Source: an uncultured Clostridia bacterium (GTDB lineage Bacteria; Bacillota; Clostridia; TANB77; CAG-508). Taken from it: 64,000 nucleotides of DNA. Below, in pieces: positions 4,663 through 63,768 of this stretch; positions within the stretch are counted from its first letter, which is position 1; every line of letters begins with the position of its first letter. The notes beneath the pieces are model-generated. The model had not been told where the DNA came from, searched no databases, and saw only the letters and a program-made list of their open reading frames with translations. A program made the position numbers and the translations under genes. Location of the stretch: contig CAKPSH010000007.1 of the NCBI GenBank assembly GCA_934183325.1, positions 1,029-65,028 of the forward strand. The letters are read 5' to 3'.

Positions 4663-4697
4663 AAAAACCGCCCCTCGAAGTAAACTTCGAAGGGCGG
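4663..4697 (-). terminator. GC-rich intrinsic terminator of the secreted-protein cassette
   Basis: 13-bp stem, CCGCCCCTCGAAG (4668-4680) with CTTCGAAGGGCGG (4685-4697). U-tract lies on the minus strand (A-run 4663-4667). Confidence 0.8.
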
Positions 4698-4712
4698 GGA
4701 GGATTTTCCTGT

Positions 4713-5222
4713 TTAACTAGCAGTATCCATGCTTGAAGTCGCATAGTTAAACAGGGTCAGAGCAGTCTGCCAGTTTACCGGTCCAACCGAGAAACTGTAG
4801 CCTGCGTCCGAGCCAGAATACTGACTCGTGGTAATCGTCAATCCTTCAATAGGCGACGTTACCTGATGACTTTGGTCATAGGTATTTCCCTTGACTGTAA
4901 AGTCAAAGTACATTCCATTGACCATCGAGCCGTGAATACGTACCGAGCTTCCCTGTCCAAAGCCGTAGCTTTGCCAGTTACCCGAGCCAAGGTCAATCGT
5001 CTGATCAACCTGATCCCAGTTAGACTGGTTCATGTTGATACTACCTCCGAACATCAGCATCGGCAGCATCATCTGCATCTGGTTAGGCATCATCGCCGTG
5101 ATCGAAGCAGTTGTGCCTGTCGTTTGATTGCCATCAATCGGCTGCCAGTTTCCTGCGAGAGAGCCACCAGTCAGCAAATTGAAAAGCAGTGAAAGAATGA
5201 CGAGCAGAATTTGGATATTCAT
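4713..5222 (-). CDS. secreted protein of unknown function (signal peptide, Q/N/M/G/S/T-rich)
   Basis: ORF 4713-5270, start moved to ATG 5222 (MNIQILLVILSLLFNLLTGGSLAG...), 7 nt after GGAGG (5234-5230). Hydrophobic signal-like N-terminus. DNA is much more GC-rich than the flanks (32/60 G+C at 4921-4980). Confidence 0.7.
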   Translation of the reverse strand: MNIQILLVILSLLFNLLTGGSLAGNWQPIDGNQTTGTTASITAMMPNQMQMMLPMLMFGGSINMNQSNWDQVDQTIDLGSGNWQSYGFGQGSSVRIHGSMVNGMYFDFTVKGNTYDQSHQVTSPIEGLTITTSQYSGSDAGYSFSVGPVNWQTALTLFNYATSSMDTAS

Positions 5223-5282
5223 TATATATCCTCCTTTTTGAATGTGCCTATGTGAGAGACTTTCTCTCACTCGTACACTTTT

Positions 5283-5311
5283 ATTTTACCCTATTTTTAC
5301 ATTTTTGTCAA
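5283..5311 (-). promoter_or_regulatory. sigma-A type promoter of the secreted-protein cassette
   Basis: Minus strand reads TTGACA (5311-5306), a 17-nt spacer, then TAAAAT (5288-5283). The leader carries the hairpin GTGAGAG/CTCTCAC (5252-5270). Confidence 0.55.
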
Positions 5312-11223: not shown

Positions 11224-11442
11224 ATGAAAGTTATTTACAAAGATGGTAGCGAAGGAGTTTTATCCGCAGAAGCTTCTGAAAAGTTGCACCTTTAGGGGCG
11301 CTTTACTTTGGAAGCTTGGCAGGAGCTTGAACAAGAGATGACTCGACTCGGCATTATCAAGTTTGAGGATCCTCTTCTTAAGATGTGGGGCGCAGGATAT
11401 GCATCGATTGAATATGTTCGAAATCAGGTAGCAGCTCACTAA
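11224..11442 (+). pseudogene. GC-rich small ORF (72 codons) interrupted by an in-frame TAG at 11293-11295
   Basis: Own reading: GGAGG, then ATG 11224 and MKVIYKDGSEGVLSAEASEKLHL, then TAG. The same frame continues GRFTLEAWQELEQEMTRLGIIKFEDPLLKMWGAGYASIEYVRNQVAAH to TAA 11440-11442. Both halves are under 60 aa, so it is absent from the ORF track. 29/60 G+C at 11281-11340. Confidence 0.5.
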
Positions 11443-11544: not shown

Positions 11545-11934
11545 CTAATTATAAAGTTTTTTGAAAAAATCGTCTATGTCATCACATATATATTCAAATT
11601 TATTTTCTTCATGTAAATATAGTTCTACAGCTTTTGTTTTTTTATTTATACATATTATATCTCCAAATGGTGTAGTTGCAAAAGGAATATATTCCATATT
11701 AAATATACTTTCATACATATATATACTCTCTTTTGATTCTTTATTATATGATATTAAATTTTGAACAACTCTTTCTTTACTATCTTTTGTATCAAATACT
11801 TTTTTTGAAGGGCATCCTCCATTATATTTTAATATAACTTCTTTTAGTTTTTTTGGTATCTCTAGTTTATATTTTTGTTCTATATTTTCTATGCTCTTAC
11901 TATCAACTAGTGGTTCTACATACTTCCAATCCAT
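11545..11934 (-). CDS. SMI1/KNR4 (SUKH-1) family protein, immunity-protein-like
   Basis: ORF 11545-11982, start moved to MDWKYVEPL (ATG 11934) after GGAGG. Pattern IEQKYKLEIPKKLKEVILKYNGG ... FATTPFGDIICI ... is typical of SMI1/KNR4. Confidence 0.75.
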   Translation of the reverse strand: MDWKYVEPLVDSKSIENIEQKYKLEIPKKLKEVILKYNGGCPSKKVFDTKDSKERVVQNLISYNKESKESIYMYESIFNMEYIPFATTPFGDIICINKKTKAVELYLHEENKFEYICDDIDDFFKKLYN

Positions 11935-12189
11935 ATAATACCTCCTCATTAAATATTTTTCATTCATCAAAACCTTTTGCATACTATTATTTTAACTCTT
12001 TTTCCATTGATTATCAAGATATTTTTGATTTTTAATTAATATCTTTTTATATTTTACATATTGTTAAAAATAAAATTTAAAATAAATTTGACACACTAAA
12101 CTATAAAAAATATTTAAAATATTGCTAATATTCATTAAATTTTATAAAAAAAGAAAAGCACTATATCTATTGATACAGCGCTTTTTCTT

Positions 12190-18561: not shown

Positions 18562-18590
18562 TTGACATTTACATAAAATAATAGTATAAT
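18562..18590 (+). promoter_or_regulatory. consensus sigma-A promoter of an orphan transcription unit
   Basis: TTGACA (18562-18567), 17-nt spacer, TATAAT (18585-18590). Confidence 0.6.
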
Positions 18591-18596
18591 AATAGT

Positions 18597-18806
18597 TGTA
18601 GATGGCTAAATGCCATTTGCAGGAATGTACATTGAGTGAGTGTAAAAAAAAGCGTCCTGTCAGGTTTTTTCTTGATTACGAGGTGTAAATCCCCGTCGAA
18701 TGTTAGGTCTCCTCACCGAGCATTCTTTAGGAAGGACGTTCTTTGGTTCCGTGCTGGTTCCAAAGTACTAACCCCGCTGATTCAGAATCAGCGGGGTTTC
18801 TTTTTA
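18597..18806 (+). ncRNA. candidate structured ncRNA (~210 nt), family unassigned
   Basis: Lies between the consensus promoter and a 14-bp palindromic terminator AACCCCGCTGATTC/GAATCAGCGGGGTT (18770-18798) plus T-run. GC-enriched, with internal pairings (ATGGC/GCCAT 18602-18616; CGTCCT 18652-18657 with AGGACG 18732-18737). Only SD-less ORFs up to 28 codons. Confidence 0.5.
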
Positions 18807-18919
18807 TATTCTTAGGAAAGTCATCTATGAAATAGTGAGTTTCCTTAGAAGATAATTATGGAAGAATTAAATTTCCTTATGTGCCTTGGGCACTTAGAAA
18901 ATATTATTCTTGTTTTTTA
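18801..18919 (-). repeat. ~118-bp terminator-associated dispersed repeat, copy 1 (inverted relative to copies 2-6)
   Basis: Reverse complement matches copies 2-4 with about 3 substitutions; one lies in the loop of the GTGCC...GGCAC hairpin. Starts in the T-run of the preceding terminator and ends on the htpG stop codon. Confidence 0.85.
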
Positions 18920-20794
18920 TTTCGAAATTATTTCACAAATATAATTACTTATCTCTGTTGGATTTTCTATTGGTAAGCCTTCAATTAATCTGGCCTGTGA
19001 ATATAATACCTTTGTATATTTTTTTAATTCTTCTTTATTATTTTCAAATAAATCTTTTAGTTTTTTTGCAATTTCATGATTTTCATTTATCTCTAGAACA
19101 GTTTGTGCCTTAACCCCTTGACTGTTTGGCATAGCACTTAATGTCTTTGCCATTTCAATTGATACTGCTCCCTCACTGCTTAAGCATACTGGATGATTCT
19201 TTAATCTGTGAGTAAATCTTATTTCTTTTACTTCACCACTTATTGCTTCTAACATTGTATCAAACATTTCTTTGCTTTCTTCATTTTTCTTTTCAAGTTC
19301 TTCTTTCTCTTCTGCTGTATCTAAATCTATACTTTCAGAACTTACATTCTTAAATGTCTTTTCTTCATAATTCATTATAACTTGTAGAACAAATTCATCT
19401 ACATTATCTGTTAAATATAATACTTCAAAGCCTTTATCTTTAAATGCTTCTACTTGTGGTAATAAATCTATTTTATCTATTGTTTCACCTGCTGCATAAT
19501 AAATTTCTTTTTGTCCTTCCTTCATTCTTTGAACATATTCTTTTAATGTAACTAATTTCTTTTCTGTTGATGAATAGAACATTAATAAATCTTTTAATTT
19601 ATCCTTGTCCATTCCATAATTTCCATAAGTTCCATATTTTAATTGTAAACCAAATGTATTAAAGAATTTTTCATATTTAGTCCTATCTGTTTTTAACATA
19701 TTCTCTAATTCAGCTCTTATTTTATTTTCGATATTTTTAGCTATAATTTTTAATTGTCTATCATGTTGTAGCATTTCTCTTGAAATGTTTAAAGACAAAT
19801 CCTGACTATCTACCAATCCTGTTACAAATCCAAAATAATCTGGTAGCAAATCTTTGCATTTATCCATTATCAATACACCATTTGCATATAATTGTAGTCC
19901 TCTTTCATATTCTTGAGAATAGTAATCATAAGGCAAATGTTCTGGTATAAATAGTAAAGCATCATAAGTAAATTGACCTTCAACTGATGTATGAATTACT
20001 TTCATAGGATTTTCAAAATCACGTATTTTTTCTTTATAAAATTCATTATATTCTTCATCTTTTATAGTCTTTTTATCTCTTTTCCATATAGGAATCATAG
20101 AATTTATTGTTTCTATTTTCTTTACTTTTTCATTTTCTTTTCCTTCTTTTTGAACTTGTTCCTCTAATTCCATTTGAATTGGATAACGAATATAATCAGA
20201 ATATCTCTTAATTAATCCTTCAATTGTAAAATCTTCTAAATATTGACTATATTTTTCTTCATCAGTATCTTCTTTTATATGAAGTGTTATCTTTGTTCCT
20301 ATATCACTTTTTTCACATTCTTCTATTGAGTACCCCTCTACTCCTTTTGATATCCATTTATAAGCTTTTTCTGAATCCATTGATTTTGTTTCAACAGTTA
20401 CTTCATCACTTACCATAAATGACGAATAAAATCCCACACCAAATTGTCCTATAATATCTATATCTTTTCCTTTTTCTATTTCTTCTTTAAAGCTTAACGA
20501 ACCACTTTTAGCAATAGTTCCAAGATTATTATCTAATTCTTCTTCTGTCATTCCACAACCATTATCTGTTATTGTTATTGTTCTTTTTTCTTTATCCAAG
20601 TCAACTTTTATTTTCAAATCTTCTTTTTTTAATGTAGTATTTTTATCTGTTAATGAACGATAATAACGTTTATCAATTGCATCACTCGCATTTGAAATAA
20701 GTTCTCTTAAAAATATCTCTTTATTTGTATAAATTGAATTAATCATTAAATCTAATACTCTTTTAGATTCTGCTTTAAATTCTTTATTCTCCAT
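18917..20794 (-). CDS. htpG: molecular chaperone HtpG (Hsp90)
   Basis: ORF 18917-20872, start moved to MENKEFKAE (ATG 20794) after AAGGAAGGA. Motifs ELISNASDA and GQFGVGFYS. Confidence 0.95.
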
Positions 20795-25292: not shown

Positions 25293-25410
25293 AGTATTCT
25301 CTCCTTTCTTTTTGTGTGCATTTTATTATAAGATATTTTTTCTTTTATTGTCAATAGCCTTACAATTTTTTCACAAAACTTTCACATTTCCATTGAATAC
25401 CTCAAACAAA

Positions 25411-25531
25411 TAAAAAACAAGAATAACATTTTCTAAGTGCCAAAGGCACATAAGAAAATTTAATTCTTCCATAATTATCTTCTAAGGAAACTCACTATTT
25501 CATAGATGACTTTCCTAAGAATATAAAAAAA
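25411..25531 (+). repeat. ~118-bp terminator-associated dispersed repeat, copy 2 (full length)
   Basis: ATAAAAAACAAGAATAACATTTTCTAAGTGCCAAAGGCACATAAGAAAATTTAATTCTTCCATAATTATCTTCTAAGGAAACTCACTATTTCATAGATGACTTTCCTAAGAATATAAAAAAA. Core is identical to copy 4. Confidence 0.9.
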
Positions 25532-32113: not shown

Positions 32114-32190
32114 TCGTGCCAAAATTACTATGTAATTTTGTGTACAATGTATTTTATATACTAAAAAGTTCAGAGAACTTTCTTAGTATA

Positions 32191-32311
32191 TAAAAAACAA
32201 GAATAACATTTTCTAAGTGCCAAAGGCACATAAGAAAATTTAATTCTTCCATAATTATCTTCTAAGGAAACTCTCTATTTCATAGATGACTTTCCTAAGA
32301 ATATAAAAAAA
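32191..32311 (+). repeat. ~118-bp terminator-associated dispersed repeat, copy 3 (full length)
   Basis: One substitution relative to copies 2 and 4 (CTCTCTATTT vs CTCACTATTT). Preceded by a 17-bp hairpin at 32155-32192. Confidence 0.9.
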
Positions 32312-37348: not shown

Positions 37349-37390
37349 AAAACACCGCCCTGGCATTTAATGTCAGGGCGGTGTTTTTTG
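37349..37390 (+). terminator. intrinsic terminator of udk
   Basis: AACACCGCCCTG (37351-37362) pairs with CAGGGCGGTGTT (37374-37385), followed by TTTTT. Confidence 0.85.
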
Positions 37391-37411
37391 TTCCACGTAT
37401 TTTATTTATAT

Positions 37412-37532
37412 TAAAAAAACAAGAATAACATTTTCTAAGTGCCAAAGGCACATAAGAAAATTTAATTCTTCCATAATTATCTTCTAAGGAAACTCACTAT
37501 TTCATAGATGACTTTCCTAAGAATATAAAAAA
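37412..37532 (+). repeat. ~118-bp terminator-associated dispersed repeat, copy 4 (full length)
   Basis: Core identical to copy 2. Confidence 0.9.
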
Positions 37533-44974: not shown

Positions 44975-45928
44975 TTAGACCATGAATATTCCTATAATCG
45001 ATACTGCTAATGTGATTAAACTAAAAACTGATACTACCGTACTTTCTTTCCATCCACTTAATTCAAAATGATGATGTAATGGTGCCATTTTAAAAATTCT
45101 ATTACCTGTTTTTCTAAAATATGTTACTTGAATAATTACAGACAGAGTTTCTAATAATGGTATTATCGCTATGACTAAAAGTAATAATGGTACTTTCAAA
45201 TATAATGCCATTGCTACTATAACTCCTCCTAATAATAAGGATCCTGTATCCCCCATAAATACTTTTGCTGGATGTAAATTAAACAATAAAAAGCCTAAAC
45301 ATGCTCCACTTACTAAAGCTCCAAATAGAGCAACTTCTAATTCATTTTTTAATATTCCTATTGCAGTTAAACAGCAAATTATAGTCATTGATACACTTGC
45401 TGATAATCCATCTATTCCATCTGTTAAATTTATTGCATTAGTTGTTGCAAGCATTGTACAAATTACAAATGGTATATATATTAATACAGGAATATTTACA
45501 TATACTTTTAAAATTGGTATTAAAGTTTGTGGTCCTATTTTTTCATTATTTGCCAAAAATAATGAATATAATACTGAGATTACCAATAATCCTAGCATCT
45601 TTGATGAAGGGCTTATTCCCTTGGTATTTTGATATCTTAATTTTGTTGAATCATCTATACACCCTATTAATCCAAAACCTATTGATACTAATATTAATGG
45701 AATAATCTCTTTGGTTGTAATAGCTAGTATTGTTCCAATTATAATTATTGTTATTGCTATTATTATTCCTCCCATTGTTGGAGTTCCCTGCTTTTGTAAA
45801 TGACTTTGAGGTCCATCGGTTCTTTCAATTTGCCCAACCTTTAGTTTTCTTAATATCGGGATAATAATTAGTGCTAAAACAACCGTAAGTGAGAATGATG
45901 CAACTAATACTTTCAATTCCGATTCCAT
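44975..45928 (-). CDS. mraY: phospho-N-acetylmuramoyl-pentapeptide transferase
   Basis: 317 aa, with motifs TPTMGG, NLTDGIDGL, FMGDTGS, HHHFE. Confidence 0.95.
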   Translation of the reverse strand: MESELKVLVASFSLTVVLALIIIPILRKLKVGQIERTDGPQSHLQKQGTPTMGGIIIAITIIIIGTILAITTKEIIPLILVSIGFGLIGCIDDSTKLRYQNTKGISPSSKMLGLLVISVLYSLFLANNEKIGPQTLIPILKVYVNIPVLIYIPFVICTMLATTNAINLTDGIDGLSASVSMTIICCLTAIGILKNELEVALFGALVSGACLGFLLFNLHPAKVFMGDTGSLLLGGVIVAMALYLKVPLLLLVIAIIPLLETLSVIIQVTYFRKTGNRIFKMAPLHHHFELSGWKESTVVSVFSLITLAVSIIGIFMV

Positions 45929-45930
45929 TT

Positions 45931-47403
45931 TTATTTCTCCATTCCGTCTATTATTTCGTTTACAATTATTCTTTCATCAAATGGATATTTCTTATGATTA
46001 ATTTCTTGATATGGTTCATGTCCTTTTCCAGCAAGAACAATTATATCGTTTTTATTTGCCATAGCTATTGCTTTTTTTATTGCTTCTGTTCTATCTACTA
46101 TACATTCATATTTACCTTTTGTATTTTTTATTCCTAATTCTATTTCTTTTACAATTTCTTCTGGATTTTCTGTTCTTGGATTATCAGATGTTATTATTGT
46201 ATAATCTGCAACTCTTCCTGATATTTCTCCCATCATTGGACGCTTTGCTGAGTCTCTGTCTCCACCACATCCAAATACAGAAATAACTCTACCTCTTGTA
46301 TATGCAGCAACAGCTTGTAAAATGCTTTCCAAACTTTTTGGTGAATGTGCATAATCAATCATTATTGTTAAACCTTTTTTGTTAGGAATTAATTCACTTC
46401 TTCCTGGTACTTTAATATCAGTTAAAGCTTCTTTTATATTATCAACTGTTGCATTAAATTTTACAGCAACACAAATAGCTGCTAAAGCATTATATATACT
46501 AAATCTTCCTGGTATGCCTACTTTAATTCTTTCATTTTTACCATATAATTTTTCTTTAAAATCAGCATAAGAATTAGTTATTGTAATATCTTTTGCAATA
46601 TTATTTGCTTCATTATCTATTCCATAAGTCTTTATCTCACATTTTGCTTCTCTAATAACTCTTTGTCCATATAAGTCATCAGCATTTACATATGCTATAT
46701 CACACATATCAAATAATTTTAATTTTGACTCAAAATAATCTTCCATGTCTGGATGTTCTTTTAAGCTTATATGGTCTTCTGATAAATTAGTAAATACTCC
46801 TACATTAAAATGTATGCCATATACTCTATTTAGTTTTAAACTTTGAGAAGATACTTCCATAACTGCAATCTCTGTTTCTGCATCTACCATTTTTCTTAAT
46901 ATTTCAAATAAATGAATACTATCTGGTGTTGTTCTATCTGAATCTTCATATTTTTTTCCATTTATATATGTAGCAACTGTACCTATTAAACCTACTTTAC
47001 TTCCTTGTTTTTCTAGTATTTCCTTTATCATGAATGTAGTTGTAGTTTTTCCTTTTGTACCTGTAACTCCAACCATTTTTAATTTTTCTTCAGGATGTTC
47101 ATAAAAATTAGCTGCACAAATTGCCTCAGCTAATCTTGTATCTGGTACCATTACTAATGTAATATTCTCATATTGTAATAATTTTTTATAATCATATCCT
47201 TCTTGTATCATTATTACTTCTGCGCCATTTTCAATTGCTTTTTCAATATAATTATGACCATCAGTTTCAAAGCCTTTAATTGCTATAAATAAAGAACCTT
47301 CTTTTACTACCCTTGAATCTGTTGTGATTTGATTTATATCAATATCAGCTCTTCCTTTCGCTTTAATTCCTGTAATTCCATTTAAAATATTTTTTAAATT
47401 CAT
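45931..47403 (-). CDS. murE: UDP-N-acetylmuramoyl-L-alanyl-D-glutamate--2,6-diaminopimelate ligase
   Basis: Mur ligase P-loop GVTGTKGKTTT and DNPR motif (TSDNPRTE). Confidence 0.92.
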   Translation of the reverse strand: MNLKNILNGITGIKAKGRADIDINQITTDSRVVKEGSLFIAIKGFETDGHNYIEKAIENGAEVIMIQEGYDYKKLLQYENITLVMVPDTRLAEAICAANFYEHPEEKLKMVGVTGTKGKTTTTFMIKEILEKQGSKVGLIGTVATYINGKKYEDSDRTTPDSIHLFEILRKMVDAETEIAVMEVSSQSLKLNRVYGIHFNVGVFTNLSEDHISLKEHPDMEDYFESKLKLFDMCDIAYVNADDLYGQRVIREAKCEIKTYGIDNEANNIAKDITITNSYADFKEKLYGKNERIKVGIPGRFSIYNALAAICVAVKFNATVDNIKEALTDIKVPGRSELIPNKKGLTIMIDYAHSPKSLESILQAVAAYTRGRVISVFGCGGDRDSAKRPMMGEISGRVADYTIITSDNPRTENPEEIVKEIELGIKNTKGKYECIVDRTEAIKKAIAMANKNDIIVLAGKGHEPYQEINHKKYPFDERIIVNEIIDGMEK

Positions 47404-51681: not shown

Positions 51682-51733
51682 TTCTAAGGAAACTCACTAT
51701 TTCATAGATGACTTTCCTAAGAATATAAAAAAA
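51682..51733 (+). repeat. terminator-associated repeat, copy 5 (terminator-proximal 52 bp only)
   Basis: TTCTAAGGAAACTCACTATTTCATAGATGACTTTCCTAAGAATATAAAAAAA. Begins exactly at the second internal TTCTAAG of the full unit. Confidence 0.85.
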
Positions 51734-53989: not shown

Positions 53990-54195
53990 AACACACACAA
54001 AACCCCTATAGGATTTTGTACATCCTATAGGGGTAATACATTCAATATTACGGTTCCACCCTAATGTTTAACTTAATTCTAGATTTTATCGATAATCCTA
54101 AACGCTAACTTTTCAGCTAGGAACTCCAAGGTAGTTTTTCAAATATGTTTTCTAAAATTAGTTTTCAGCCACGACTAATTCTCTCTGTTAGTAAC
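53990..54195 (-). promoter_or_regulatory. T-box leader (Thr) with terminator/antiterminator
   Basis: Minus strand carries the T-box sequence AGGGTGGAACCGTAATATTG (54063-54046). The terminator is CCCCTATAGGAT/ATCCTATAGGGG (54033-54003) plus a U-tract. There is an AGAGA motif near 54185 and candidate specifier ACU/ACC at 54135-54130. The 5' limit is approximate. Confidence 0.75.
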
Positions 54196-55326
54196 CTCTA
54201 TTTTACTTCCGTCCTCTTCAACATTCTTTAAATTATCTTTATTATACTCTCTTACTTCTCTCTTGTCAATATTTTCTTCAATAAGATGTACTGCTGTTGG
54301 TGGCATAGCTAATTTTATATTTTTATCTTCTAATAATTTTATAATACTTAAATTTACTTTTGTTTTAAAATTTAAAAACTCAGTATAATCAACAATACTT
54401 AGATATGCAAATATCTCTATTTTTATTGCATTTTGTGTAATTTCATTTATATAAACAATTACTGAATTTGCCATTACTTCTGTATTACTATATAATAGCA
54501 TTTTTATAGACTCCATTAATTCTTTTACTTTTATTGAGCTTGTATCTAGTGGAATTCCATAGCTTAATGCTAACTTTCTTTTTTCTATTTTTGAAATATT
54601 AATTACTGCCCCACTTACAATTTTTGCATTTTGTATTGTTACAATTGTATTATCAGTCATCCTAATCTTTGTGCTTCTAAATTTAATATCTATTACTGTT
54701 CCTTCATAATCTCCTATTCTCACATAATCTCCAAGTTCAAAAGGCTTATCTGAGACAATTGCCATTCCACTAAGTAAATTTTCTACCAGTTCTTGAGCAG
54801 CAAGTGCGATTACCACACTGCTTAATCCTAAACCTGTTATTAATCCACTTAAATCATATCCTAAATCTGCTATTATCATAAATCCTGCTATTATATATAC
54901 TACTGCTTTTATTATTTTGCTTACAACTCCAATTGTAATTTTATTTTCAGAAAGCCTTTCACTTTTTCCTACTTTTTTCATTATCTTTGATTCTGGAGAT
55001 ATTAATTCAGAAATAATTCTTGTTACACTTATTATAATAACAATTCTTAAAATTTTACTGCATAAACTAAACCAGCTAGCTTCTAAATTCAATATTAATA
55101 GTGCAATATATACACCAATACATATAAAAATAGTTTTTAATCCTTTACTTGTTTCACTATTTTTTAGCTTCTGTTTTTCGCTTCCCTTAACCTTAAAAAT
55201 TTTTATAATCATATTTGAAAATACATTTCTCATAATATAAAATAATATGATTATACCTATAGCTATTAGAACATCTATTAATTCTTTTTGCTTTATTGTT
55301 TCAATAAAATTGTTTATTTGCTCCAT
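54175..55326 (-). CDS. mechanosensitive ion channel (MscS family)
   Basis: 383 aa. N-terminal TM helices followed by the MscS beta-domain pattern (PFELGDYVRIGDYEGTVIDIKFRSTKIR). TAG stop. Confidence 0.88.
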   Translation of the reverse strand: MEQINNFIETIKQKELIDVLIAIGIIILFYIMRNVFSNMIIKIFKVKGSEKQKLKNSETSKGLKTIFICIGVYIALLILNLEASWFSLCSKILRIVIIISVTRIISELISPESKIMKKVGKSERLSENKITIGVVSKIIKAVVYIIAGFMIIADLGYDLSGLITGLGLSSVVIALAAQELVENLLSGMAIVSDKPFELGDYVRIGDYEGTVIDIKFRSTKIRMTDNTIVTIQNAKIVSGAVINISKIEKRKLALSYGIPLDTSSIKVKELMESIKMLLYSNTEVMANSVIVYINEITQNAIKIEIFAYLSIVDYTEFLNFKTKVNLSIIKLLEDKNIKLAMPPTAVHLIEENIDKREVREYNKDNLKNVEEDGSKIEVTNREN

Positions 55327-55429
55327 ATTTTATTCCCTTCTTCTTTATAAATTGTTTTTATATTTTATAATATACATTTAAAAAAATCAATACAAAATAT
55401 AGCTAACTTTCCTAAAACAAAAACAGATA

Positions 55430-55500
55430 TAAAAAACAAGAATAACATTTTCTAAGGAAACTCACTATTTCATAGATGACTTTTCTAAGAATATAAAAAA
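55430..55500 (+). repeat. terminator-associated repeat, copy 6 (internal 50-bp deletion)
   Basis: Both ends of the unit are present, but the segment between the two TTCTAAG direct repeats is missing. Confidence 0.85.
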
Positions 55501-55536
55501 ACCGATGGTGGTGATCTTTCGACCACCACCATCGGT
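55495..55536 (-). terminator. GC-rich terminator of island cassette A
   Basis: 13-bp stem, ACCGATGGTGGTG (55501-55513) with CACCACCATCGGT (55524-55536). Its U-tract is the A-run that ends repeat copy 6. Confidence 0.85.
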
Positions 55537-55543
55537 TTAGGTA

Positions 55544-55927
55544 TTACTTATCGCAATATGCAATTGCGATAATATTAACACCTTCAGTGTTTGTGTATGC
55601 ACACAAGCGCATCCACGAACCTTCCTTATACTGGAAGTCCTTAGAATACTTCCAGTGCTTGGTGCCAATCATTGCCTCTGCCGGGCAATCATACTTGCGT
55701 ACTCTCACCACACAGCTGAGACCACTGAGATAGTTAAGGAAGTTAAAGACTTCCGCCTTCAGTTCCTTATTTTTCAGAATCCCAATTACTTGGGACCCCT
55801 TGCTATTGTTGGGACATTGCCACGTCAGGTCATGTCCACCATCAGCTCTAAACTGGCTATTAGCCAGTTCAGCTTCACCATCGGTTTTCCACTCGACAGC
55901 GCCAAACTCAAGCTCCTCGTAGGGCAT
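55544..55927 (-). CDS. island cassette A: small cytoplasmic protein (127 aa), unknown family
   Basis: ORF 55544-55954, start moved to MPYEELEF (ATG 55927) after AAGGAGGG. GC-rich coding DNA (29/60 at 55801-55860). Shares a C-terminal core with cassettes B-D. Confidence 0.7.
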   Translation of the reverse strand: MPYEELEFGAVEWKTDGEAELANSQFRADGGHDLTWQCPNNSKGSQVIGILKNKELKAEVFNFLNYLSGLSCVVRVRKYDCPAEAMIGTKHWKYSKDFQYKEGSWMRLCAYTNTEGVNIIAIAYCDK

Positions 55928-55980
55928 AAAGCCCTCCTTTCTTTCTCTGCTCACGGAACTTTTCCGTTCTTGCTTTTTAT

Positions 55981-56009
55981 ATTATACAATTTTATGTAAA
56001 TTTTGTCAA
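55981..56009 (-). promoter_or_regulatory. promoter of cassette A
   Basis: Minus strand reads TTGACA (56009-56004), 17 nt, TATAAT (55986-55981). Full sequence TTGACAAAATTTACATAAAATTGTATAAT. Confidence 0.6.
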
Positions 56010-56116
56010 ATTCTAAATATAAACTAAATATTAATAGCATTTACATTAGCAAAAATCTTTTACTTTTCATCCTTATTTTATAAGTCATCTTTCTTATACA
56101 ATATTTATATAACACA

Positions 56117-56140
56117 ATGAGGTGGCCTAAGCCACCTCAT
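56117..56140 (-). terminator. terminator hairpin of cassette B
   Basis: ATGAGGTGGC-CTAA-GCCACCTCAT. Same sequence as the cassette C hairpin. The U-tract is weak. Confidence 0.6.
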
Positions 56141-56158
56141 CGTGTTTGATGGGATATT

Positions 56159-56557
56159 TTAACGATTGCGCTGAGAGAATGCAATGTTCAGCGCCTTTCT
56201 GCCATCATCCATGGTATAGCCACAGATTTCAGCAAAATACCGAACACTAGAAATCTCAATCCCCCTGTTCCAGTTTTTTACACCCTCGACTGTGTCGAGG
56301 ATGCAATCATAGAAGCGAACATTGACGACCTCGTATTCAACAAAGTCAACAAAGTTCATCAAGCGGAATAATTCCCGTCTCAGTGCGTCGTCAGACATGA
56401 GTATTTTGGTAGGGGACATCACTGCATTTTCAGGCTTCCTCCATACCTTCTCACTCTTTCCTTCTGACCCTTTGTAGAGGTAATTAGCCTCTTCACTATA
56501 AGGATCTTTTTCCCATCGGGTCTTCTCGAATCGAAGACCATCAGAGTAAACAGACAT
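56159..56557 (-). CDS. island cassette B: small cytoplasmic protein (132 aa), paralog of C
   Basis: GAGGAG SD (56569-56564) and ATG 56557. MSVYSDGLRFEKTRWEKDPY... GC-rich coding DNA. Confidence 0.7.
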   Translation of the reverse strand: MSVYSDGLRFEKTRWEKDPYSEEANYLYKGSEGKSEKVWRKPENAVMSPTKILMSDDALRRELFRLMNFVDFVEYEVVNVRFYDCILDTVEGVKNWNRGIEISSVRYFAEICGYTMDDGRKALNIAFSQRNR

Positions 56558-56610
56558 ATATGTCTCCTCTCTTTAATGACTCACAGAACCACTCTGGTCT
56601 TGTCTTTTTT

Positions 56611-56639
56611 ATTATACAATTTTATGTTAATTTTGTCAA
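56611..56639 (-). promoter_or_regulatory. promoter of cassette B
   Basis: TTGACA (56639-56634), 17 nt, TATAAT (56616-56611). Full sequence TTGACAAAATTAACATAAAATTGTATAAT. Confidence 0.6.
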
Positions 56640-56665
56640 ATCTAAAATGCCTACATATATCAATA

Positions 56666-56689
56666 ATGAGGTGGCCTAAGCCACCTCAT
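56666..56689 (-). terminator. terminator hairpin of cassette C
   Basis: ATGAGGTGGC-CTAA-GCCACCTCAT, identical to the hairpin at 56117-56140. Confidence 0.6.
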
Positions 56690-56713
56690 CGTGTTTGATG
56701 GGATATTCAGCTA

Positions 56714-57151
56714 TTAACGCTTAACAAATGCAATATTCAGGGCCTTTCTGCCATCCTCCATGGTACAACCACAGATTTCGGTAAAATACCAAAGACTAGG
56801 AATCTTGATTCCTCCCTTCCATTCTTTTACACCTTCAACCTTATCGAGGATACAATCATAGCAGCGAACATTGACGACCTCATATTCAACAAATTCAATA
56901 AAGTTCATGAGATGGAACAATTCATCTCTCAGACCCACATCAGATAAAAGTTTCTTGGTTGGCGACATTACCTCTCCTTCAGGCTTACGCCAAACCTTAT
57001 CCTTCTTTCCATTTGCCTCTCCTTTAGGCCCACGCCAAACAATCTCATTCTTTCCTCTTGCCTCTTTATAGAGGTAATTAGCCTCCTCGCAATATGGGTC
57101 TCTCTCCCATCTCGTCTTCTCGAATCGAAGACCATCAGAGTAAACAGACAT
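56714..57151 (-). CDS. island cassette C: small cytoplasmic protein (145 aa), paralog of B with a 13-aa internal repeat
   Basis: MSVYSDGLRFEKTRWERDPY... Differs from B at 2 of the first 29 residues. Contains GKNEIVWRGPKGEAN followed by GKKDKVWRKPEGEV. Confidence 0.7.
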   Translation of the reverse strand: MSVYSDGLRFEKTRWERDPYCEEANYLYKEARGKNEIVWRGPKGEANGKKDKVWRKPEGEVMSPTKKLLSDVGLRDELFHLMNFIEFVEYEVVNVRCYDCILDKVEGVKEWKGGIKIPSLWYFTEICGCTMEDGRKALNIAFVKR

Positions 57152-57204
57152 ATATGTCTCCTCTCTTTAAAGACTCACAGAACCACTCTGGTCTTGTCTT
57201 TTTT

Positions 57205-57233
57205 ATTATACAATTTTATGTAACTTTTGTCAA
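57205..57233 (-). promoter_or_regulatory. promoter of cassette C
   Basis: TTGACA (57233-57228), 17 nt, TATAAT (57210-57205). Leader is nearly identical to that of B. Confidence 0.6.
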
Positions 57234-57280
57234 TTTTTTAAATTTTTTCCGTTGACTTTTTTATTTTTATTACTGTATAA

Positions 57281-57321
57281 CAAAAACTCAAAGGTCTATG
57301 GCGTAGCCATAGACCTTTGAG
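57281..57321 (-). terminator. terminator of cassette D
   Basis: 16-bp stem, CTCAAAGGTCTATGGC (57287-57302) with GCCATAGACCTTTGAG (57306-57321). U-tract on the minus strand (A-run 57282-57286). Confidence 0.85.
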
Positions 57322-57322
57322 T

Positions 57323-57628
57323 TTAGAGTTTCACAACTGCAACCTTTGCCTGTTTATCGAAATGGCAAATTTTTGCAATAAAACGCTTGCCAGAAACTAC
57401 AACTGGACCTTTCCAGCCTTCCGTTTCTTTAGCTAAAACCTCCTTGTCGCGGTACAGTCTCATGAAGACTACATCTCCCTCATTCAAGAACCCCCTCATT
57501 CTCCACAGCAGCTCCGTATCTTTGAATATGTCGCATGCTTTGAACTCGCTGACATACCATCTCATAGGCATATCAAATTCTTTAATCCGTTCGATGTTCT
57601 TAGGATTTGTAATACGGCTCCAGCCCAT
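57323..57628 (-). CDS. island cassette D: small cytoplasmic protein (101 aa), distant paralog of A-C
   Basis: GAGGAG SD 8 nt from ATG 57628. MGWSRITNPKNIERIKEF... GC-rich coding DNA. Confidence 0.65.
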   Translation of the reverse strand: MGWSRITNPKNIERIKEFDMPMRWYVSEFKACDIFKDTELLWRMRGFLNEGDVVFMRLYRDKEVLAKETEGWKGPVVVSGKRFIAKICHFDKQAKVAVVKL

Positions 57629-57689
57629 TTTGCATTCTCCTCACTCTTTTTTTGTTTTGCAGGCAGGTTTCTCCTGTCTCGTATCTTTA

Positions 57690-57718
57690 ATTATACTATT
57701 TTATAAGCATTTTGTCAA
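57690..57718 (-). promoter_or_regulatory. promoter of cassette D
   Basis: TTGACA (57718-57713), 17 nt, TATAAT (57695-57690). Confidence 0.6.
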
Positions 57719-57749: not shown

Positions 57750-58454
57750 TTACATTGATATTTGTAAAAAGCTCATTATTATTGCTGCTATGTAATATAT
57801 TCCTTCTATTATAGCAAAAGTCTTTATAAATTTTTTATCATCATCTTCATTAAAAATAAACTTAATTCCAAAATACAATAACACTGTACTAATAACAGAA
57901 CACAAAGTTGTAAATCTTGTTGTTAATCTTGAAATATCACTACTAAATAATACTAATAATGATATAACTCTTGCCATTACTACTGGAAGTTTTGTAGCAG
58001 TAACAACAGATATTATTGTCATTAATCCCTTATCTTTGTTCTTATTCATTACAAATATTATTAATGACATTATAAACACTATTGCAATTGGTGAAAGTAT
58101 TAATTTTATTATAGGTAATATATATCTAAAAACATTAATTGTTCTTATTCCTGCTGAAAAAGAAATAAGTACTGCTAAAATCCACACAGCCACTAATATT
58201 ATTGAATATTTAAAATAACTATTATTTGTATCATTTGCAATCTTTTTCAATTCTTCTATTGGATTTTTAAACATTCCAAATATGAAATTTTTTGTTTCAT
58301 TTGCATTTTTCTTTAAATCCTCCTTATTAAAAGACCCCTTTACTTGGTCTTTTACTTCATTAAAAGTATTAGCTGTTTCTTTTAATATTTCATCTGTATT
58401 TATTTTGTTTTCTTTTACTTCTTCAGTATCATTATTTTTGTTTTCTTCTTCCAT
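57750..58454 (-). CDS. polytopic membrane protein with an acidic N-terminal tail, unknown function
   Basis: 234 aa. Charged N-terminal 90 residues followed by about 5 TM helices. Host-like composition. Confidence 0.65.
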   Translation of the reverse strand: MEEENKNNDTEEVKENKINTDEILKETANTFNEVKDQVKGSFNKEDLKKNANETKNFIFGMFKNPIEELKKIANDTNNSYFKYSIILVAVWILAVLISFSAGIRTINVFRYILPIIKLILSPIAIVFIMSLIIFVMNKNKDKGLMTIISVVTATKLPVVMARVISLLVLFSSDISRLTTRFTTLCSVISTVLLYFGIKFIFNEDDDKKFIKTFAIIEGIYYIAAIIMSFLQISM

Positions 58455-59953: not shown

Positions 59954-60118
59954 TTATCTTCCGCAACATCCAAAGTTTGTAAATAATAATAAAAATATTA
60001 TTATAAAAAATAATATTTCACTGTTTCCACAGCTATTTCCACCAAATAAATTTCCTAAACCTCCACAACAATTGTTATTATTGTTTGAGCAACCACAATT
60101 TCTTGATTCTTCTGGCAT
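59954..60118 (-). CDS. unannotated 54-aa Cys/Gly/Asn-rich protein with a C-terminal TM helix
   Basis: Own reading: GGAGGAACATATT, then ATG 60118 and MPEESRNCGCSNNNNNCCGGLGNLFGGNSCGNSEILFFIIIFLLLFTNFGCCGR, then TAA 59956-59954. Below the 60-aa cutoff of the ORF track. Confidence 0.6.
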   Translation of the reverse strand: MPEESRNCGCSNNNNNCCGGLGNLFGGNSCGNSEILFFIIIFLLLFTNFGCCGR

Positions 60119-63525: not shown

Positions 63526-63535
63526 AATATCCCCA

Positions 63536-63768
63536 ACATATATTAATTTTAGAGTCAATAGCCTCATCAAGCCTGCTGCTCACGGATTACTCCAGCGACC
63601 TGACGAGATTGACAATAAAATCAATCTCATTTGAATTATTCTATAACTTATTTAAAGACCTACATATATTAATTTTAGAATCAATAACCTCGTTAAGCCT
63701 GCTGCTTACGGATTACTCCAGCGACCTGACGAGATTGATGATAAAATTAATTATATGTAGGTCTTAAT
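63536..63768. repeat. tandem direct repeat (2 units, 126-bp period), each with a GC-rich ~60-nt hairpin core
   Basis: Units start at 63536 and 63662 (ACATATATTAATTTTAGA...). Hairpin cores lie at 63554-63613 and 63680-63739. The second unit is enclosed by a further 20-bp inverted repeat (63655-63674 with 63745-63765). Confidence 0.75.

Follow-up and report, generated by a model that had tools for sequence, protein, structure and literature searches.

The window analysed here is a stretch of 64,000 nucleotides (nt) of contig CAKPSH010000007.1 from an uncultured low-GC gut Clostridium, with a GC content of 28%. Between mscS (54175-55326) and a gene for a Yip1-family membrane protein (57750-58454) it holds a tandem array of four open reading frames (ORFs), A (55544-55927), B (56159-56557), C (56714-57151) and D (57323-57628), all of which lie on the minus strand where a preliminary description of the same sequence had placed them. 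The genes neighbouring the array are thrS, mscS, yip1 and smpB. Gene A encodes an acidic protein of 127 amino acids (aa); the longest ORF over it opens at a GTG at 55954, and the ATG at 55927 is the one that follows a Shine-Dalgarno sequence (SD). Gene B encodes 132 aa with a predicted alpha/beta fold, and C (145 aa) is a duplicate of B at 77% identity, with a 13-aa insert that is repeated internally (VWRGPKGE/VWRKPEGE). Gene D encodes a basic protein of 101 aa with an isoelectric point (pI) of 9.5, which consists of the core domain of the family only.

Each of the four genes was found to be a self-contained transcription unit with its own promoter, leader hairpin, SD and terminator hairpin, as had been proposed, and the features of the array are far beyond chance. 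The promoters are located at 55981-56009 (A), 56611-56639 (B), 57205-57233 (C) and 57690-57718 (D), all on the minus strand, and each matches TTGACA-17-TATAAT at 12 of 12 positions, which bears out the exact promoters reported before. They have the 29-nt consensus TTGACAAAAnnnnnATAAAAnnnTATAAT in common, which occurs exactly four times in the window against 0.02 expected.

The leaders follow at 55928-55980 (A), 56558-56610 (B), 57152-57204 (C) and 57629-57689 (D), on the same strand, and all open with an A-rich stretch, followed by CAAGA, a small hairpin whose loop is rich in A, GTGAG and a strong SD. Their hairpins lie at 55967-55953 in A (ACGGAA-AAG-TTCCGT), 56600-56584 in B and 57194-57179 in C, with a weak one at 57679-57661 in D, and begin 12-16 nt past the -10 box, close to the predicted transcription start. 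The SDs (AAGGAGG in A and GAGGAG in B, C and D) are of the GGAGG or GAGGAG type as described previously, while the spacing to the ATG was found to be 5-8 nt (8 nt in D) and not 7-9 nt.

Canonical intrinsic terminators, with stems of 18 and 19 base pairs (bp) followed by a T run, end cassettes A (55499-55538, minus strand) and D (57284-57324, minus strand). Cassettes B and C end in strong hairpins at 56111-56146 (hairpin 56117-56140) and 56660-56695 (hairpin 56666-56689), also on the minus strand; the two hairpins are identical, the B stem can be extended to 16 bp, and neither has a clean U tract. The earlier statement that every gene has its own terminator thus stands in full for A and D and in part for B and C, where the missing U tract makes some read-through from C into B and from B into A possible. 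Over 43 nt the terminator regions of B and C (56116-56158 and 56665-56707) are 100% identical, compared with 78-88% for the gene bodies, which suggests a recent gene conversion confined to the 3' ends. At the downstream edge of the array, before mscS, lies a copy of an AT-rich repeat that is interspersed in the host sequence (55358-55500, minus strand).

In base composition the array stands out clearly. A sliding window of 200 nt gave four GC peaks of 0.43-0.47 with troughs of about 0.30 between them, in surroundings of 0.16-0.30; the coding sequences (CDSs) have a GC content of 0.42-0.46, and the spacers are AT-rich at 0.25-0.34. The GC content at third codon positions (GC3) is 0.41-0.52 in the cassettes (0.48 in D), while six neighbouring genes have 0.10-0.16 and the median over all long ORFs is 0.13. 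An index modelled on the codon adaptation index (CAI), with bulk host genes as reference, is 0.25-0.35 for the cassettes and has a host median of 0.72. These computations agree with the atypical composition and the AT-rich spacers of the preliminary description, whose hand counts of G+C (29/60, 8/60 and 21/60) were exact. It had also named CTG, GCC and CGC as codons avoided by the neighbours and frequent in the array; CTG and CGC are indeed enriched, along with CTC and ACC, while GCC makes up 4% in cassettes and host alike.

The protein family and its history at the locus

About 20 related contigs were compared at the locus, and some of them are referred to by their labels below. The window has the order Yip1-D-C-B-A-MscS-ThrS. 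At the same locus L002 and L036 carry D-B-A, L037 carries D-C-A with C in the place of B, and L001, L003, L005 and L034 carry B-A with another AT-rich gene upstream. A second lineage, whose genes are marked with a prime, has Yip1-D'-A' in L029 and L030 and Yip1-D'-B'-A'-ThrS in L031. In L031 (2024-2545) thrS follows directly after cassette A' and mscS is missing from the locus, hence mscS itself is variable at this site.

Every contig with a family member has it at the same locus and in the same order, and A is always present; single cassettes have been gained or lost between strains, and the array as a whole has been kept. No empty site was found among these about 20 contigs, and we found no tRNA near the array, no integrase or other mobility gene at it, and no flanking repeats except the interspersed repeat of the host. 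About 2.8 kilobases upstream of mscS in L008, L009 and L010, where these contigs break, positions 1-700 hold a GC-rich (45-52%) gene that contains repeats and by eye only resembles a cell-wall hydrolase.

Between the window and the lineage of L031 the protein identity is 95% for ThrS and 77% for Yip1, but 36-41% for A, B and D, where D' is the orthologue of D at 38% identity and in the same position. The synonymous sites of the cassettes are saturated in this comparison, while the synonymous divergence (dS) of the flanking genes is 0.48-0.68. Within the first lineage, the dS values between the window and L001 are 0.41 for A, 0.08 for B, 0.08 for thrS and 0.03 (0.026) for mscS, and those between the window and L002 are 0.013 for A and 0.105 for B. 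As adjacent genes thus differ more than 10-fold in dS for the same pair of strains, the alleles have been reshuffled by recombination into mosaics.

Among orthologues taken from gut-metagenome contigs the substitutions concentrate at codon position 3 (for instance 8/8/28, 10/8/35 and 26/14/53 over the three positions), and the Nei-Gojobori ratios of nonsynonymous to synonymous divergence (dN/dS) are 0.08-0.18, with 0.08-0.17 for B and 0.18 for C against B. We therefore regard A-D as real genes almost with certainty. That the ORFs are spurious and the transcripts purely non-coding, GC-rich RNAs had to be considered, both as long stop-free antisense frames run over A and D and as an island of high GC in an AT-rich genome is usually the sign of a structured non-coding RNA gene (PMC6429828), a relation on which screens of intergenic regions by GC content and length are based (PMC6429828, PMC11109978). 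The substitution pattern, which holds in all comparisons, rejects this explanation; the SD and the ATG are conserved as well, paralogs with unalignable DNA are still homologous as proteins, and B has a confident structure model, hence we find it barely conceivable. The long antisense ORFs over A and D were also rejected as genes, since they are not conserved in A' and D' and result from avoidance of TTA, CTA and TCA codons.

The preliminary description took the four products for divergent paralogs with a common C-terminal core, and both BLASTP and hhalign agree. A matches B with E = 5e-15 at 26% identity, D has a weak match to B (E = 2e-4), and a profile of D sequences only aligns to one of A and B sequences only with an hhalign probability of 92% (E = 6e-7, 69 columns). 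It is very probable that A-D form one family. AlphaFold2 modelled B from an 11-sequence alignment with a predicted local distance difference test score (pLDDT) of 82 and a predicted template modelling score of 0.80, in the element order beta-alpha-beta-alpha-alpha-beta-alpha-beta-beta-beta. The model of D was poor (pLDDT 57) and unfit for a fold search, and it has the same order of secondary structure as the B core. Signal peptides or transmembrane segments were not evident in any of the four proteins, in agreement with what was said before, by eye and with no predictor run.

No credible match for the cassette proteins was found in Pfam, PHROGs, PADLOC, NCBIfam or PDB sequences. Foldseek, run with the B model against PDB and BFVD, gave nothing at E < 1e-3 (best E 0.12 and 0.015, template modelling score < 0.4), and its weak matches, of the glyoxalase/bleomycin-type beta-alpha-beta-beta-beta, were not used as evidence. 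A profile search of 5.8 billion protein clusters returned 7 clusters only, all of them close, and when 1.8 billion representatives (at 50% identity) were scanned exhaustively with HMMER, five real clusters and a spurious one came up; the latter, P0010, matched through a 371-aa representative, is a eukaryote-type repeat protein in which a short motif matched five times. Phage and plasmid records (tblastn) and IMG/VR held no relative of the cassette proteins, nor did the GTDB species representatives when scanned with B-type peptides, and a scan of Joint Genome Institute metagenomes added one further contig of the same species. No GTDB representative has an MscS more than 65% identical to that of the host, and the MscS relatives there are not syntenic. 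The view that no named family can be assigned is hence upheld, as no source holds a name for any member, and on these sequences the family is a clade-restricted orphan of small, presumably soluble alpha/beta proteins of about 100-145 aa.

The cassette proteins are under purifying selection overall, yet they diverge far faster than the flanking genes. Among A alleles the amino acid differences cluster in three loops, at residues 10-12, 35, 40-44 and 101-104; between the window and L037 those 12 codons of A carry 7 nonsynonymous and 0 synonymous changes, and the remainder carries 1 and 2. For the closest allele pairs dN/dS exceeds 1. The 90% cluster of A by itself comprises 40 distinct sequences. 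Basic proteins are encoded by D and D' (pI 9.4-9.5) and acidic ones by A and A' (4.9-5.7), and those of B and B' are near neutral. As the order D-B-A is conserved along with these charge differences, distinct and possibly co-operating roles are suggested, and the match of acidic A with basic D would predict a hetero-complex.

Leaders and RNA structure of the transcripts

Over the stretch from the -35 box to the ATG the identity is 90% between B and B' and 77% between A and A', compared with 54-58% for the DNA of the coding sequences, and no other part of a cassette is as well conserved as its promoter and leader. The hairpin of the A leader shows a compensatory change in A' (CGGCA-AAG-TGCCG).

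Whole predicted transcripts fold far more stably than dinucleotide shuffles of the same sequences, with z = -10.7 for A, -7.7 for B and -5.1 for D. For the coding sequences we used a stricter null, in which the terminators were removed and synonymous codons were permuted within the gene, such that protein and codon usage were retained. The z-scores were then -7.4 for A, -4.1 for B (-5.0 in a second run), -0.8 for C and -1.6 for D, against 0.07 to -1.5 for four host gene segments. In synonymous shuffles all A alleles gave -5.3 to -7.7, including A' at 41% aa identity, while the other B-type alleles gave -1.1 to -3.2, B' -2.7 and D' -2.2 to -2.5. Neither the RNA structure of the coding regions nor the GC-rich cassettes elsewhere in the window had been noticed in the preliminary description.

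The coding sequence of A is predicted to fold as a chain of about 10 hairpins, several of which are perfect stems of 8-11 bp. An RNAalifold consensus of seven A alleles, with at most 24% nucleotide divergence, contains 117 pairs; 95% of its cells are paired, which was matched by 0 of 500 column shuffles, and slid partners reach 33-40%. Compensatory pairs were found at 96-111 (CG<->UA, both synonymous) and 219-244, and two stems (columns 272-298 and 356-380) do not vary at all, synonymous sites included. A and A' have only 6-9 common pairs out of about 130, and their hairpins lie over the same codons (an invariant Trp and the AE[VL]F[NS]F segment) with different sequence. The sense strand was more stable than the antisense strand beyond the effect of composition in four of five tests, and this sense-specific excess points to RNA and not to palindromes in the DNA. 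These results make selection for RNA structure in A likely. An Rfam search of the array region gave no match at gathering score, and none of any meaning at E <= 1.

Origin and possible role of the array

We suggest, and put the chances at about even, that the array consists of resident modules resembling small RNA (sRNA) genes, whose GC-rich bodies are selected at the level of the transcript and which encode small, fast-evolving, binding-type proteins of a new family. It would then be a long-resident chromosomal tandem array of paralogs and not a recent import. Each gene would form its own expression module of sigma-A promoter, A-rich start, 5' hairpin, SD, GC-rich body and terminator hairpin, constructed like an sRNA gene that contains an ORF. 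The GC-rich codon usage would be held by selection at synonymous sites, with the transcript itself as the best-supported target. The coding body, above all that of A, would offer stable hairpins and few of the AU-rich unstructured stretches favoured by RNase Y-type decay enzymes, and together with the 5' hairpin, the SD and the 3' hairpin this would give an unusually long-lived mRNA in a host whose other mRNAs are about 72% A+U. The products would be binding or neutralising proteins that face a changing partner.

Several published findings are in line with such a mechanism. Whole mRNAs of B. subtilis are stabilised by stem-loops at the 5' end and by strong SDs (PMC3997798), the regions targeted by RNase Y are AU-rich and weakly structured (PMC11780869), and structure within coding sequences prolongs the functional half-life of mRNA in other systems (PMC6883848). 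By analogy this supports, but does not prove, nuclease-resistant and long-lived messages, and the cassettes would be both highly expressed and stable as messages. The chance that stabilisation is the purpose of the structure we place somewhat below even. The known Firmicute 5' stabilisers, such as the aprE and ermC leaders and the cryIIIA STAB-SD (PMC3997798), would resemble the cassettes in a small hairpin, which in the cassettes lies near the predicted 5' end, ahead of a very strong SD; the cassette leader is also better conserved than its gene. Unlike the cassettes they have no structured GC-rich coding body, and stabilisation of the cassettes is a prediction from their sequence.

A number of points weigh against this interpretation. 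C and D (z of -0.8 and -1.6) are near the host range though equally GC-rich, such that the excess of structure is strong in A only and moderate in B. At third positions predicted to be unpaired GC3 is still 0.34 against 0.13 for the host, a comparison that serves as a caveat only, confounded as it is by the more frequent pairing of G and C bases in predictions; hence structure alone is not enough to explain the composition, and it may be as important to avoid single-stranded stretches rich in AU as to form pairs. The covariation in A comes from 7 sequences (about 4 independent alleles), and the structure tested was derived from the same alignment. Polarisation by minority state, which was applied to the third-position changes discussed below, is a crude method, and the hypervariable sites of A were picked after the alignment had been seen. 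High expression and stability are predicted from sequence, and host-rare codons together with stable hairpins should slow translation, which sits badly with maximal output. Finally, no partner gene, fold match or domain from the Pfam, PHROG, PADLOC, NCBIfam, PDB and Foldseek searches hints at a binding target.

The preliminary description had interpreted the array as horizontally acquired, and this we do not find supported. A recent island from a donor of about 45-50% GC, still unameliorated and with AT-rich promoters recruited or evolved later, would account for the deviating GC3 and CAI-like index, for the different cassette numbers between strains and for the absence of MscS from the locus in L031. 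Homologues are nevertheless confined to the clade in every collection searched, locus and order are fixed in two lineages, promoter and leader are homologous between paralogs and between lineages, and integrase, tRNA and flanking direct repeats are missing. Further, GC3 in the second lineage is 0.35-0.55 despite saturated dS, and the third-position changes are balanced, with 15 GC>AT against 18 AT>GC in A and 32 against 25 in B, where a several-fold excess of GC>AT would be expected of a foreign gene on its way to a GC3 of 0.13. With such a balance the GC-richness appears to be maintained, and selection, or some biased process, must hold the synonymous sites GC-rich. As no donor was found and GC3 is stationary, recent horizontal gene transfer is a poor explanation; we think it probable that the array is not a recent transfer, and an island of the kind outlined seems very improbable. 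Acquired genomic islands have a similarly deviant base composition and codon usage, but the array lacks mobility genes, a donor and amelioration, and its position is fixed across diverged lineages. An integron or other array of mobile cassettes was discarded too, with no integrase or attC found, a promoter in each cassette, and 3' hairpins that are terminator-like, with T runs at A and D. A local process without adaptation, in which the locus is a recombination hot spot and either GC-biased gene conversion, or repair by template switching at the quasi-palindromes of a heavily transcribed region, raises GC and makes hairpins perfect to no advantage, would agree with the mosaic alleles and their more than 10-fold differences in dS between adjacent genes, with the conversion suggested by the identical B and C terminators, and with the many perfect stems. 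It fits poorly with GC being raised in the coding bodies only, as the spacers recombine with them and remain at 25-34% GC, with paralogs that are mostly too diverged (26% aa identity) for conversion between them, and with the same GC-rich build in an unlinked single-copy gene (4713-5222). The reported effects of GC-biased gene conversion in bacteria amount to a few percent of GC3, not to a shift from 0.13 to 0.5, and we judge this explanation as improbable as the island or slightly more so.

The transcripts could also be functional structured RNAs in the first place, either with dual functions or in ribonucleoproteins (RNPs) with their own products, such that the ORFs are secondary or the proteins bind their own RNAs. 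The sRNA-gene build, the extreme fold z-scores, the stems of A that are invariant even synonymously, the sense-specific stability and a non-coding-looking GC-rich transcript with a similar promoter elsewhere in the window (18597-18806, z -6.7, no Rfam family) all speak for this. Set against them, no Rfam match, no complementarity to other window sequences and no RNA-binding domain were found, purifying selection and a confident fold indicate that the protein matters, and helix positions are mostly unconserved between A and A', which points to general compactness and not to a specific RNA architecture; we consider this unlikely, though less so than an island or a non-adaptive process. With GC-rich islands of non-coding RNA the cassettes have in common the sharp local rise in GC, the own promoter and terminator and a folding energy far below shuffles, but their GC-rich body is a translated ORF under purifying selection and belongs to no Rfam family. 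The dual-function RNAs SR1/SR1P, RNAIII/hld and SgrS/SgrT have a documented function in base pairing, and their ORF takes up only a small share of the RNA. These too are compact structured transcripts with their own promoter and terminator that encode a small protein; the cassette transcripts, by contrast, are filled by the ORF and have no known RNA target.

An immunity-like role of the proteins is a lesser possibility, and it may hold alongside the resident, transcript-selected modules that we prefer. Protein divergence, mosaic alleles and loop-clustered changes would fit a binding role of conflict type. The array would in that case be an orphan set of immunity, antitoxin or anti-defence genes that neutralises toxins, defence factors or phage factors encoded elsewhere, with tandem copies broadening the specificity, a proposal that we regard as rather doubtful. 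In its favour are the small, soluble, tandem and divergent paralogs of variable copy number, a divergence far above that of the flanks with mosaic alleles, and the nonsynonymous changes in three loops among near-identical alleles, with dN/dS > 1 for the closest pairs; gene-wide, however, dN/dS is 0.1-0.2. As the preliminary description had noted for the window, no toxin or defence gene is adjacent, and this extends to all of the about 20 contigs, where no recombinase gene and no toxin remnant linked to the array was found either. Neither PADLOC, Pfam and PHROG matches nor a fold match to known immunity proteins turned up, and the D-B-A triad with its conserved charge differences looks more like subfunctionalised partners than a turnover array. 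The window does contain a true immunity gene of the SUKH type (11545-11982, minus strand), which is AT-rich and unrelated to the array; it encodes a SUKH/SMI1-KNR4 immunity-type protein (Pfam SUKH_6, E = 6e-17) with no obvious toxin gene alongside. Orphan immunity-gene arrays, such as SUKH/Imm genes and the acquired interbacterial defence clusters of gut bacteria, are tandem sets of small, divergent cytoplasmic paralogs, which differ in copy number and diverge fast. The cassettes are like them in these respects and in their gut-commensal host, and differ in having no immunity homology or fold match and no nearby toxin or recombinase, in a promoter and terminator for each gene, and in a set of three paralogs that is kept instead of turning over freely. 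A type II toxin-antitoxin module was rejected, as the genes are monocistronic and neither a toxin nor a helix-turn-helix or ribbon-helix-helix domain was found, and so was an anti-defence (anti-CRISPR-like) locus, given the chromosomal housekeeping context and the lack of any PHROG match or phage or IMG/VR relative.

If selection on the transcript is real, the array would be a clear natural case in bacteria of synonymous-site selection for the structure of a whole message. Atypical GC is routinely read as horizontal transfer; here the signal is stationary, fixed at a locus and linked to RNA folding, which is a warning for methods that call islands. A family without relatives or a recognisable fold, which evolves many times faster than its neighbours in a human-gut commensal, makes its members candidates for an undescribed interaction or conflict system. 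Further, the module of promoter, leader and terminator looks like a ready-made strong expression cassette for low-GC Clostridia.

Related cassettes and other features of the window

Besides the array, the only ORFs of the window with a GC3 of at least 0.41 are an 80-aa ORF at 45895-46137 (GC3 0.41) and the gene at 4713-5222 with its antisense ORF. The latter gene is part of a GC-rich cassette (4665-5310, minus strand) with a TTGACA-17-TAAAAT promoter, a leader hairpin (GTGAGAG-AAAGT-CTCTCAC), the SD AAGGAGG and a strong terminator. It encodes an orphan of 169 aa with an N-terminal hydrophobic, signal-like segment, has a GC3 of 0.56 and a fold z-score of -3.0, and is unrelated to the array family. 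Its own family is also clade-restricted, and a 46%-identical homologue in L038, from another AT-rich host, has a GC3 of 0.59 and the same promoter and leader build. Beside this homologue (L038 4615-5097, minus strand) lies a gene for a stand-alone Spo0A_C-domain protein of 160 aa, with a GC content of 0.50 and a GC3 of 0.59; it seems as if GC-rich small genes cluster.

A candidate new sRNA is found at 18562-18806 on the plus strand. Its TTGACA-17-TATAAT promoter (18562-18590) is similar to those of the cassettes, and the predicted transcript of about 210 nt (18597-18806) is GC-rich with a strong terminator and lies beside the gene for RNase P RNA; above the gathering threshold it matched no Rfam family. 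We speculate, with considerable reservation, that the array, the gene at 4713-5222 and this transcript represent a distinct gene class of very AT-rich gut Clostridia, which is protein-coding with the build of sRNA genes and has synonymous sites selected for RNA structure and GC-richness. Such genes could provide nuclease-proof messages that are translated while the bulk of AU-rich mRNA is destroyed, for instance under stress, toxin activation or phage attack, or their transcripts could form RNPs with their own fast-evolving products. A third possibility is that they arose from genes for structured sRNAs, in which stop codons are naturally scarce owing to the GC-rich body.

The AT-rich repeat at the edge of the array is one of six copies in the window, where 0 are expected. 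The copies are about 50-143 nt long and have the core TTCTTAGGAAAGTCATCTATGAAATAGTGAGTTTCCTTAGAA, which is itself an inverted repeat; apart from the copy at the array they are located at 18801-18922 (+), 25388-25530 (-), 32168-32310 (-), 37390-37532 (-) and 51682-51731 (-). The repeat always starts directly after the T tract of a terminator.

Three minor observations concern small ORFs and a repeat. A small GC-rich ORF at 11224-11442 (+) has its own SD, an in-frame TAG (MKVIYKDGSEGVLSAEASEKLHL*...EAWQELEQEMTRLGIIKFEDPLLKMWGAGYASIEYVRNQVAAH) and a bidirectional terminator at its end, and may be a pseudogene or a read-through gene. Between smpB and a U32 peptidase gene, an ORF of 54 aa at 59954-60118 (-) is rich in Cys, Gly and Asn and has a hydrophobic tail (MPEESRNCGCSNNNNNCCGG...); it had no Pfam match, and L002 has it among its called genes as well. 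Towards the end of the window, at 63533-63751 (+), two tandem copies of 93 nt are 90% identical, with a period of 126 nt.

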